42,461 nt of DNA from a virus (Duplodnaviria; Heunggongvirae; Uroviricota; Caudoviricetes). The translations under genes were made by a program, and so were the position numbers. The notes under the pieces are model-generated. The model saw only the letters and a program-made list of their open reading frames with translations. It had not been told where the DNA came from and searched no databases. Below, in pieces: positions 36,331-39,119 of this stretch (the first letter of the stretch is position 1; each line of letters starts with the position of its first letter). The DNA lies in the IMG/VR virus record IMGVR_UViG_2703719365_000009; one strand, 5' to 3'.

Positions 36331-36429
36331 GACGCTCTCTTTGTTGGGCCTTTACTGAATTAACGCAAAATGGCGTTTATCGGTCTGTGGATATGATAAT
36401 TCAGTTTATTCAGGAACAGGCTGATTATT

Positions 36430-38469
36430 ATGACGTCCAAATGGGTTCAACTATCATCAATGCCCGGAAACTTTACTGTTAAAGTTTCCGGTGGTACAGC
36501 GGCATTTCTTGAGGCTCCCTTTCCTCCGGCCGAAACAAAAGGAGGAATGACATTTGCTGACTGTCTCATCAGTTTTAATACACGGGATTGCCTGTGGGTA
36601 AGGCCAGTATCCGGTGATCCGAGTGTGGAAATTACCGGAGCGGGTATTGGTGCGGTCATTCCGTTAAGTGCTGATGTTGCCGGTACTGCTGAACCGTCAG
36701 ACTGGGATAATGCTGAAACACATACCCGTCCGTCAGGAAATGAAACTGCTTCCAGCTCCCCTTCCTGGTATTACGTGGTGGTTCTTGCTGGTCAGTCAAA
36801 CGGTATGGCTTACGGTGAAGGTCTGCCACTGCCGGAGACATATGACCGCCCCGAACCGCGTATTATGCAGTTAGCCCGTCGCAGTACAGTCACGCCGGGA
36901 GGTAAAGCCTGTCAGTATAACGACATCATTCTGGCCGACCACTGTCTGCATGATGTGCAGGATATGAGTGGAAAAAATCACCCGAAAGCGGATGTGGCTA
37001 AAGGGCAATATGGCACCGTGGGTCAGGGGCTTCACATTGCCAAAAAACTGCTGCCGTTTATTCCGGCAGATGCGGGGATTCTGCTGGTTCCCTGCTGCCG
37101 TGGTGGTTCTGCATTCACGGCGGGTGCTGACGGCACGTACAGTGACAGCACGGGTGCTTCAGAGGACTCAGCCCGCTGGGGTGTGGATAAGCCGCTGTAT
37201 AAGGACTTAATCAGCCGGACAAAAGCGGCACTGGCGAAGAACCCGAAAAACCGCCTGCTTGCTGTGGTGTGGATGCAGGGCGAGTTTGATATTGATGCGA
37301 AGCCGACGGAGCATTCCGCGCTGTTTCTGGCGATGGTGGAAAAATTCCGCGCAGACCTGGCTGAACAGGCGGAACAGTGTACCGGTGGCAGTGCTGCTGG
37401 CGTTCCGTGGATTTGTGGCGATACCACGTATTTCTGGAAACAGAAAAATGAACCGGCATACCAGGCAATCTATGGCGGCTACAAAAACAAAACAGATAAA
37501 AACATTCATTTCGTTCCATTAATGACAGATGAAAATGACGCGAATGTACCCACCAACAATCCGGCAGAAGACCCGGATATTGAATCCATTGGTTATTACG
37601 GCTCAACGTGGCGTAACAGTGCCGCCACCTGGACATCTGCGGACCGGGCCAGCCATTTCAGTTCATGGGCACGTCGTGGGATTATTTCCGACCGTCTGGC
37701 CACGGCAGTTCTGACTCATGCGGGGCGAACCACAGTAAAAGCCGATGTTCCATCTTCTGAAACTGAAGCACCAGTGCCGTCACCTTCAGAAACTGAAGCA
37801 GTAACCACAACACTGCTGTCTTATCGTGTCAGTGAGTCAGAAGGAAATCTGAAAGCCCAGGGCTGGGAGCCGGCTGGCGGTAAAGCTGAAATTATCAGTG
37901 ATGCAGGAGGCACAGGTGGTAAGGCAATGAAACTGACCAAGGAAACAGGTAAATCATCTTGGTATCTGGATCATGATGCCGGTACTGGTGCTGAACTGCT
38001 GAAAAATGGTGGTTTAATCAGTTGTCGTTTTAAAGTACCTGGCGACCTGGTGGCAAACCAGTATGTCATGGGGCTTTACTGGCCGGTTTCCTCTCTGCCG
38101 CAGGGTGTCACCCTGACAGGGGATGCAGGGAATAATCTGCTGGCATCGTTCTACATCCAGACAGACGCAAAAGACCTGAATGTGATGTACCACAATGCAA
38201 AAGTGGCAACAAATAACCAGAAACTGGGAACCTTTGGTGCATTTGATAATGAATGGCATACGCTGGCCTTCCGTTTTGCAGGAAATAACAGCCTTCAGGT
38301 TATTCCGGTTATTGATGGTCAGGATGGTGCCGCGTTTACCCTGACGCAGTCACCAGTAGGAACTTTCCCGGTGGACAAACTCCGCGTAACGGATATCACA
38401 AAAAATGCAACTTACCCGGTGCTGATTGACAGCATTGTGGTGGAAGTGAAAAAAGCGGTAACAGAATAA
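36430..38469 (+). CDS. NanS-p-like sialate O-acetylesterase (SGNH/SASA esterase core with N- and C-terminal extensions)
   Basis: 679 aa; motifs VVLAGQSNGMAYGEG, LVPCCRGGSAF, WMQGEFD, HFSSWARRGIISDR closely resemble E. coli NanS as recalled; N-terminal about 110 aa and C-terminal about 250 aa extra domains; non-Mu cargo. Confidence 0.8.
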   Translation: MTSKWVQLSSMPGNFTVKVSGGTAAFLEAPFPPAETKGGMTFADCLISFNTRDCLWVRPVSGDPSVEITGAGIGAVIPLSADVAGTAEPSDWDNAETHTRPSGNETASSSPSWYYVVVLAGQSNGMAYGEGLPLPETYDRPEPRIMQLARRSTVTPGGKACQYNDIILADHCLHDVQDMSGKNHPKADVAKGQYGTVGQGLHIAKKLLPFIPADAGILLVPCCRGGSAFTAGADGTYSDSTGASEDSARWGVDKPLYKDLISRTKAALAKNPKNRLLAVVWMQGEFDIDAKPTEHSALFLAMVEKFRADLAEQAEQCTGGSAAGVPWICGDTTYFWKQKNEPAYQAIYGGYKNKTDKNIHFVPLMTDENDANVPTNNPAEDPDIESIGYYGSTWRNSAATWTSADRASHFSSWARRGIISDRLATAVLTHAGRTTVKADVPSSETEAPVPSPSETEAVTTTLLSYRVSESEGNLKAQGWEPAGGKAEIISDAGGTGGKAMKLTKETGKSSWYLDHDAGTGAELLKNGGLISCRFKVPGDLVANQYVMGLYWPVSSLPQGVTLTGDAGNNLLASFYIQTDAKDLNVMYHNAKVATNNQKLGTFGAFDNEWHTLAFRFAGNNSLQVIPVIDGQDGAAFTLTQSPVGTFPVDKLRVTDITKNATYPVLIDSIVVEVKKAVTE

Positions 38470-38615
38470 AAAAATCCCGCCGGTCATGATATGGCTGGCG
38501 GGAGCTACCTAACCCATAAAGGAAAATAAAAATACTCCCGAAGGAGTGGTTATCAGTCGCTTCGATGTTTTTACCCGATAACGAATTATGTAGTCAATAT
38601 CAAAGGTAAGGTTAT

Positions 38616-38798
38616 ATGACATTCGTTCATACAATGCTGCTTTATTTCTGCGCTGTGGTCAGTGCGTTATATCTGGTGAGCGGTGGTTATAAGGTCATCA
38701 GAAATTATATTCGCCGTAAAATTGATGATGCGGCAGCTGAAAAACTCAGTAAAACAGCACAGGCACCGTCATCCCCAAACGACCCGACCCCGCTCTGA
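38616..38798 (+). CDS. Small membrane protein (single TM helix), cargo
   Basis: 60 aa; RBS AAGGTAAGG; hydrophobic N-terminus MLLYFCAVVSALYLVSGG. Confidence 0.55.
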   Translation: MTFVHTMLLYFCAVVSALYLVSGGYKVIRNYIRRKIDDAAAEKLSKTAQAPSSPNDPTPL

Positions 38799-38833
38799 TA
38801 ACGGGGCAATATACCTGCAAAAGGAGAATATTC

Positions 38834-39079
38834 ATGCCAGAGATTAAAGGCACGGTTACTGAAGAGCTTGTCAAACAGGCACTTTATTCTGAAGAAGTGA
38901 ACCGCGTGCTGAAGGCGCAGGTTCGCAAGGATTTTGAGGCACAAATCGACGCATATGTTGATGAAGTGCTGGCCCGAATGGTTGGCCGTTCTCCGGCTGA
39001 AAACAGCACGGAAAATGATCCTCAACCCGTAGAGCAACCAGAGCCGGTTCAGCCCGGAACTGACGGTACTATGATGTAA
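38834..39079 (+). CDS. Small acidic protein, cargo
   Basis: 81 aa; RBS AAGGAGA 7 nt before ATG. Confidence 0.55.
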   Translation: MPEIKGTVTEELVKQALYSEEVNRVLKAQVRKDFEAQIDAYVDEVLARMVGRSPAENSTENDPQPVEQPEPVQPGTDGTMM

Positions 39080-39088
39080 CAATACCGA

Positions 39089-39119
39089 CCGGCAGGTTTC
39101 CCTGCCGGGTGAGTTTGTT
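39089..39119 (+). terminator. Candidate terminator after the cargo genes
   Basis: CCGGCAGG-TTTC-CCTGCCGG hairpin followed by GTGAGTTTGTT. Confidence 0.5.

Follow-up and report, generated by a model that had tools for sequence, protein, structure and literature searches.

Chromosomal NanS of Escherichia coli (YjhS; PDB 3PT5) is a single-domain sialate O-acetylesterase of ~326 amino acids (aa) that belongs to the nan regulon. Its catalytic domain carries the SASA-specific blocks GQSN and QGE, and its active site is of the Ser-His kind, lacking the Block V Asp (PMC9487903). The NanS-p proteins of lambdoid and Shiga toxin (Stx) phages (933W L0105/z1466; phi24B vb_24B_21, or gp84) are borne by prophages, have no signal peptide and join the same esterase core to an N-terminal DUF1737 domain and a lectin-like C-terminal domain. 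In lambdoid phages, nanS-p is part of a Q-dependent late operon, where stx lies on one side of it and the holin gene S on the other. NanS-p esterases are thought to help E. coli strains that produce Shiga toxin (STEC) to feed on O-acetylated mucin sialic acids. In EDL933 and O104:H4, the NanS-p alleles act on 5-N-acetyl-9-O-acetylneuraminic acid (Neu5,9Ac2) as well as on the glycans of mucin, and sustain the growth of lysogens (PMC8065619). In phi24B gp84, DUF1737 is reported in a 2026 preprint to form hexamers plugged into the capsid hexons, with the esterase cleaved off later (bioRxiv 10.64898/2026.04.10.717836). Here we describe a protein of this type in a Mu-like prophage contained in a 42,461-nucleotide (nt) stretch of DNA (IMG/VR record IMGVR_UViG_2703719365_000009; hereafter the window). 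The 679-aa protein, ECs_4993, is encoded between the gin invertase gene and com/mom, and has the features of NanS-p except for two, namely the DUF1737 domain and the location in a lambdoid late region.

Sequence and structure matches assign the 679-aa protein to the sialate O-acetylesterases of NanS/NanS-p type with a lectin-like C-domain. An initial annotation, made from the DNA letters alone, had proposed a NanS-p-like enzyme with SGNH/SASA motifs and an extra domain at either end, and had recommended domain searches for SASA, DUF1737 and lectin-like folds. The SASA domain (Pfam PF03629) was found at residues 116-312 with 46.0 bits against a cut-off of 24.8, and the structure of E. coli NanS (3PT5) matched residues 104-428 with an E-value of 1.9e-118. 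The catalytic residues were all present on alignment: GQSN at 121-124 forms Block I (Q122, S123), GGS at 225 Block II and QGE at 283-285 Block III, and the His block consists of RASH at 406-409 (H409). The blocks are those defined for SASA proteins in a review of SGNH enzymes (PMC9487903) and by Pascal et al. (PMC10462455), according to which the GQSN Ser is catalytic, the Gln is an oxyanion residue and the active site is a Ser-His pair without the Block V Asp.

The search for a lectin-like fold was likewise positive. The crystal structure of a NanS-p C-domain (PDB 6YP6) matched residues 459-674 with an E-value of 1e-111, and Pfam DUF6645 was found on residues 524-642 (E 2.4e-69). The domain, which had been estimated at ~250 aa, is present as expected and measures ~220 aa (459-679), or ~245 aa with its linker. 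In the C-domain of phi24B, the aromatic residues Y510, Y515, Y540 and F611 have been proposed to bind sugar (PMC10462455), and all four are conserved in the window protein as Y545, Y550, Y575 and F646. A functional analogy may be drawn with influenza C hemagglutinin-esterase-fusion protein and coronavirus hemagglutinin-esterase, in which a lectin and an SGNH sialate O-acetylesterase are likewise combined on a viral protein (PMC9487903; PMC3266934). Those proteins are, however, envelope glycoproteins of another esterase family and bear no sequence relation to the window protein.

The esterase and C-domains are joined by a linker of the SETEA type that is also found in lambdoid NanS-p. As initially annotated, SETEA occurs twice, at aa 443 and 453. 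A 669-aa allele present in at least 1000 contigs (P0074) lacks exactly one SETEAPVPSP unit, of which the window protein has two (the first at aa 443-452, positions 37756-37785), so that the inter-domain linker is a length polymorphism. Direct reading of the sequence revealed no hydrophobic signal sequence at the N-terminus of the 679-aa protein. The exact 679-aa sequence is carried by at least 999 public contigs, where it is named 'sialate O-acetylesterase' or 'DUF6645 domain-containing protein'. The view that the locus is a candidate for an undescribed function is not borne out, given that both large domains have solved close homologues and that the databases already name this very protein a sialate O-acetylesterase.

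Where the protein departs from its relatives is the N-terminus. No Pfam match to DUF1737 (PF08410) was obtained on the 679-aa protein even at E <1. In an alignment with lambdoid NanS-p, homology starts at residue 113, and residues 1-112 are unrelated. This region consists of an 85-aa domain followed by a linker longer than that of lambdoid NanS-p and poorly conserved between clades. An AlphaFold2 (AF2) model of the domain contains five beta strands, with a predicted local distance difference test score (pLDDT) of ~80, whereas DUF1737 consists of a helix and three beta strands (bioRxiv 10.64898/2026.04.10.717836). An exhaustive phmmer search with the N-domain against 1.84 billion representative proteins gave 5 matches, among which the only true homologues were copies of the same fusion; a word-indexed protein search likewise recovered only such copies. 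One candidate relative, a 1445-aa protein with Ala/Gly/Thr-rich repeats (P0007), was rejected as a compositional match. Among the species representatives of GTDB, the other NanS proteins either bear DUF1737 or have no extension, the scan patterns having fallen on the esterase motifs. The structural search with the N-domain model returned no significant neighbour and no match to a decoration protein; the weak fold matches were to small beta-barrels and PA14 sugar-binding domains. No paralogue of the domain was found elsewhere in the window.

The domain is nevertheless conserved where it occurs. It is 60% identical between two Mu-like clades, and comparison with the clade of the M18 prophage (described below) gave a dN of 0.28 with dS saturated and a dN/dS of ~0.07; the N-domain is under purifying selection. 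In a distant Mu-like phage, an esterase encoded downstream of the invertase gene carries a copy with 29-34% identity to that of the window. The domain was not present on any of the lambdoid, P2-like or chromosomal NanS proteins compared. The new element of this locus is its N-terminus, in which DUF1737 is replaced by an unrelated all-beta domain found only on the esterases of Mu-like phages. Apart from this, the locus is accessory cargo of an ordinary kind, present in the databases from the Sakai genome onwards.

The boundary at residue 113 is also visible at the DNA level. Nucleotide homology to lambdoid nanS-p begins at window position 36768, which corresponds to residue 113 and to the domain boundary. 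Downstream of this point the window protein is 82% identical in amino acid sequence to lambdoid NanS-p in the esterase core and 79-83% identical in the C-domain, as against 70-72% in both domains when compared with the other Mu-like clade. The synonymous distances agree. For the esterase and the C-domain, dS was ~1.0 and 0.54, respectively, relative to the lambdoid copies, and 2.0-2.4 and 0.9-1.1 relative to the other Mu-like clade. Since the esterase and C-domain are nearer to the lambdoid copies, and the N-domain is common only to Mu-like phages, the enzymatic cassette has been swapped across phage types, and the N-terminal module has remained with its own type of phage. The horizontal shuffling of a host-interaction module suspected initially thus receives support. 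A draft contig (encoding protein P0134) in which a lambdoid upstream region and DUF1737 are joined, within the esterase gene, to an Sp18-type 3' part, followed by DUF1378, DUF826, an ECs_4996-like open reading frame (ORF), com and mom, is either a real prophage recombinant or an assembly chimera. Because it is a single draft contig ending 607 bp upstream and may be chimeric, we do not use it as proof of recombination.

Window positions 35770-40588 share 99.9% identity with Sp18, a prophage of E. coli O157:H7 Sakai that is treated as Mu-like in PMC2669165, and many other STEC genomes match likewise. The cargo genes correspond to ECs_4993 to ECs_4996, which are 'hypothetical' in the Sakai record. 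The window prophage has the features expected of the Mu type: a transposase (Mu-transpos_C), gin with an invertible segment, and com and mom at the right end. The Mu and window gin genes are ~70% identical at the nucleotide level in a blastn alignment extending to window position 36297, and the mom genes are 71% identical. Between positions 36298 and 39919 blastn detected no similarity to Mu. The distance from the gin stop to the com start is 3366 bp here and 94 bp in Mu. Together with the lack of Mu similarity, this gap shows that the insert between gin and com is real, and that the initial description of non-Mu cargo at a place where Mu is nearly contiguous was correct. The described extent of ~2.7 kb, holding the esterase and two small genes, needs amendment: those three genes are there, and the non-Mu stretch spans 3.4 kb with four genes, three on the plus strand and a fourth (39118-39582), previously left out, on the minus strand. 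None of the four cargo proteins gave a match in NCBIfam or PADLOC. The features of the locus are listed in Table 1.

The distribution of the cargo was surveyed in 5426 complete E. coli genomes. The DNA encoding the N-domain (36331-36775) was present in 205 of them, at up to 4 copies per genome, and the MuA gene of the window in 233; the window gin was matched by ~206 records at 95% identity or more. A Mu-like prophage in ~4% of complete E. coli genomes thus encodes the NanS-p enzyme with another module at its N-terminus, and many of the listed examples are STEC and bovine isolates. In such strains there would be one more functional nanS-p copy to count. Two divergent prophages, M18 and 23CRST047, were chosen as matching MuA while being too diverged in N-domain DNA for megablast. 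Both (2/2 sampled) contain the esterase, DUF1378, DUF826, a reverse ORF, com and mom, and M18 keeps this cargo order though it is without gin. The distant Mu-like phage with esterase and N-domain after the invertase has a G+C content of 56%, and its baseplate proteins share only 24-38% identity with their window counterparts. From the 205 genomes, Sp18, the two divergent prophages and the distant phage, we conclude that the cargo is an old and standard component of the Sp18-type lineage and not peculiar to this phage. The initial annotation had itself named an insert standard in the lineage as an outcome contradicting it, and that is what Sp18, the 205 of 5426 genomes and the 2/2 divergent prophages revealed.

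The esterase block is absent from Mu. A Mu-like element carried by the P1-like plasmid pCFSAN004178P_01 lacks both it and gin; the com gene of this element lies 122 bp behind the one for tail-fibre assembly. In a P2-like phage, the lysis genes (lysozyme, LysC) are immediately followed by a gene for a NanS-p (P0142) that combines a variant DUF1737 with an Sp18-like esterase. At least three types of temperate phage thus have nanS-p as cargo. A Mu-like phage 94-96% identical to that of the window, with the esterase block shared, is inserted in Stx phages, as in the Stx2c phage Stx2c_JNE082796; from mid-com to the right end, which holds mom in the window, it has no blastn similarity to the window.

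Taken as a whole, the locus is probably best explained as a conserved accessory block of an Sp18-type Mu-like prophage, the main gene of which encodes a three-part sialate O-acetylesterase. Judging by the assayed NanS-p enzymes to which it is homologous, the SASA/SGNH core would take O-acetyl groups off sialic acids such as Neu5,9Ac2 and the acetylated O-glycans of mucin, and the lectin-like jelly-roll would keep the enzyme on glycans, with the N-terminal 85-aa beta domain taking the place that DUF1737 has in lambdoid NanS-p. The timing of release is predicted from the same homology. As there is no signal peptide, the enzyme should, like NanS-p, have access to its substrate only upon lysis of the cell by the phage. 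Following lysis it would make N-acetylneuraminic acid (Neu5Ac) available to surviving lysogens or act on the mucus in which released virions lie, or do both. As in lambdoid Stx phages, the esterase gene is accompanied by the DUF1378 and DUF826 genes, and the four-gene cargo is seated between gin and an intact mom control region.

The N-domain sits in the DUF1737 position but differs from DUF1737; it is conserved and occurs only in Mu-like phages, whereas the remainder of the gene recombines across phage types. On these grounds we tentatively propose that it might be a virion-attachment module specific to Mu-type particles and a counterpart of the capsid-binding DUF1737, a role to which we give a smallish chance. 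If it were such an adaptor, unrelated temperate coliphages would display the same exchangeable, mucus-active esterase-lectin cassette through a phage-type-specific adaptor, as tailspikes do. The natural domain swap could show whether the N-terminus decides which virion carries the enzyme. Several points weigh against the proposed functions. ECs4993 is not mentioned in the searchable literature, and the esterase activity of this allele is assigned by homology; that literature also contains no mention of the locus tags ECs4992-4998, nor of 'nanS-p' together with 'Mu-like'. The Mu C-box pattern (TTAT-N6-ATAA) has no match in the window, and the search yielded no promoter for the block. The idea of a virion anchor is based on analogy and on co-occurrence in only three Mu-like lineages. 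Moreover, the presence of a DUF1737-type NanS-p in a P2-like phage implies that a single N-domain can work with capsids of more than one type.

The strongest alternative, to which we assign only slightly less than an even chance, is a purely metabolic enzyme of benefit to the lysogen, freed by spontaneous lysis and without a role in the virion, its N-domain being a carbohydrate-binding or oligomerisation module. Growth of lysogens on Neu5,9Ac2 through NanS-p (PMC8065619) fits this explanation, as do the weak resemblances of the N-domain to small beta-barrels and PA14 domains. No terminator-like site was found between gin and the esterase gene, making low-level read-through in lysogens conceivable. 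A generic sugar-binding module would, however, be expected to accompany the esterase, whereas the N-domain is strictly bound to Mu-like phages despite free recombination between the remainder of the gene and lambdoid copies; in addition, the domain that occupies the same position in lambdoid NanS-p, DUF1737, binds the capsid.

A virion-associated enzyme that modifies or destroys receptors by acting on O-acetylated bacterial glycans (O-antigen, capsule), thereby aiding adsorption or release, appears unlikely. The gene lies directly after the host-range module of tail fibres and invertase, and this possibility has been raised for NanS-p in a review (PMC8065619). The core is nonetheless 82% identical to NanS-p enzymes acting on sialic acids and matches NanS with an E-value of 2e-118, the lectin-site residues are unchanged, and nothing points to altered specificity. 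We consider it highly improbable that the block is a recent phage-specific insertion of lambdoid cargo with an undescribed function, as its absence from Mu and one related Mu-like element and the closeness of its esterase and C-domain to lambdoid copies might suggest, because this is refuted by a distribution in which the block is near-identical in Sakai Sp18 and 205 complete genomes and recurs in clades with synonymous sites saturated relative to the window and in a very distant Mu-like phage, and because a function is assigned through close solved homologues.

Table 1. Features of the gin-com/mom region of the window
Feature	Position	Strand	Basis or remark
gin-type DNA invertase, left cargo border	35770-36330	+	Pfam Resolvase and HTH_7; equals ECs_4992
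NanS-p-like sialate O-acetylesterase (predicted), 679 aa, ECs_4993	36430-38469	+	ORF, Pfam, structure matches, database names
Orphan N-terminal domain, all-beta (aa 1-85), in DUF1737 position	36430-36684	+	AF2, no Pfam match
Linker 1, disordered, Ser/Thr/Pro-rich, ends ASSSPS (aa 86-112)	36685-36765	+	pLDDT <50
SASA/SGNH esterase domain (aa 113-433)	36766-37728	+	3PT5 match, catalytic blocks
Linker 2 with SETEA repeat (aa 434-458)	37729-37803	+	SETEA at aa 443 and 453
Lectin-like jelly-roll C-domain (aa 459-679, DUF6645)	37804-38466	+	6YP6 match
Terminator-like hairpin, stems 38475-38483 / 38495-38503	38467-38503	-	Direct sequence read; T-run after it on minus strand only
DUF1378 small protein, 60 aa, ECs_4994, hydrophobic N-terminal helix	38616-38798	+	Pfam PF07125, E 1.2e-38
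DUF826 small protein, 81 aa, ECs_4995	38834-39079	+	Pfam PF05696, E 2.8e-15
GC-rich 8-bp hairpin between convergent DUF826 and ECs_4996-like genes, likely terminator	39089-39108	.	Direct sequence read
ECs_4996-like ORFan, 154 aa, C-terminal CxxC...CxxC	39118-39582	-	phrog_26524, E 2.5e-52
mom control region, adjoining com	39583-39696	+	Inverted repeat with two GATC sites, 39629-39653
com	39697-39897	+	Pfam Zn_ribbon_Com; ORF open from 39652
mom; com and mom (39697-40588) form right cargo border	39851-40588	+	Pfam Mom

The two small plus-strand genes behind the esterase gene have counterparts in lambdoid phages. In phage 1720a-02, behind nanS-p (648 aa) come a DUF1378 ORF of 183 bp, a DUF826 ORF of 246 bp and then the holin gene S. 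The window has the same order of esterase, DUF1378 and DUF826, with ORFs of the same 183 and 246 bp. The DUF1378 protein is 52% identical to the 60-aa product of the 1720a-02 ORF, and the DUF826 protein ~41% identical to the 81-aa product. By their shared order, ORF sizes and protein identity, the three plus-strand genes are a homologous block in two unrelated phage types. An ORF of 148 aa annotated in phage 1717 was considered as a DUF1378-DUF826 fusion and rejected; it is an over-extended DUF826 ORF.

Transcription of the fourth cargo gene diverges from the mom control region, and the gene lies in a region with a G+C content of ~39% in the GC profile. Its product has no Pfam domain and only 28 homologues, with every source-named match from E. 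coli. In the M18 and 23CRST047 prophages the same slot is occupied by different ORFs. The ECs_4996-like protein is an ORFan of E. coli Mu-like prophages.

The hairpin after the esterase stop codon was absent from the terminator scan because of its 11-nt loop. An inverted repeat with GATC sites similar to that of the mom control region is found immediately upstream of com in the cargo-free Mu-like element of pCFSAN004178P_01. Matches to sigma-70-like promoters numbered 5, compared with 7.4 in shuffled sequence, and being fewer than in shuffled sequence they are uninformative.

The right end of the prophage is at window position 40717, the limit of the Sakai homology. A 5-bp target duplication, ATGTT, is present at both junctions with the lambdoid tail-tip gene J (near 1345 and 40717), which the Mu-like prophage interrupts (window 42-1349 and ~40720-41369). 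The left flank encodes Ig_J domains and positions 1-74 of Phage_Tail_Tip, and the right flank positions 69-138 of Phage_Tail_Tip and Ig_GpJ_C. In Sakai the same element, Sp18, is integrated in sorM rather than in J, showing that the window copy has transposed. The 5' end of the transposase gene of the window prophage is unlike that of most copies.

The invertible segment adjoining gin is 1021 bp long and is bounded by inverted repeats of 185 nt (34319-34503 and 35525-35709) that are 81% complementary. There, the genes for tail-fibre C-terminal parts and assembly are unlike their Mu counterparts. In the flanking lambdoid prophage, lom (41437-42078) contains a perfect 42-bp tandem duplication at 41722-41815 (2.2 copies, 100% match), which adds 14 in-frame residues to the Lom/Ail outer-membrane protein.

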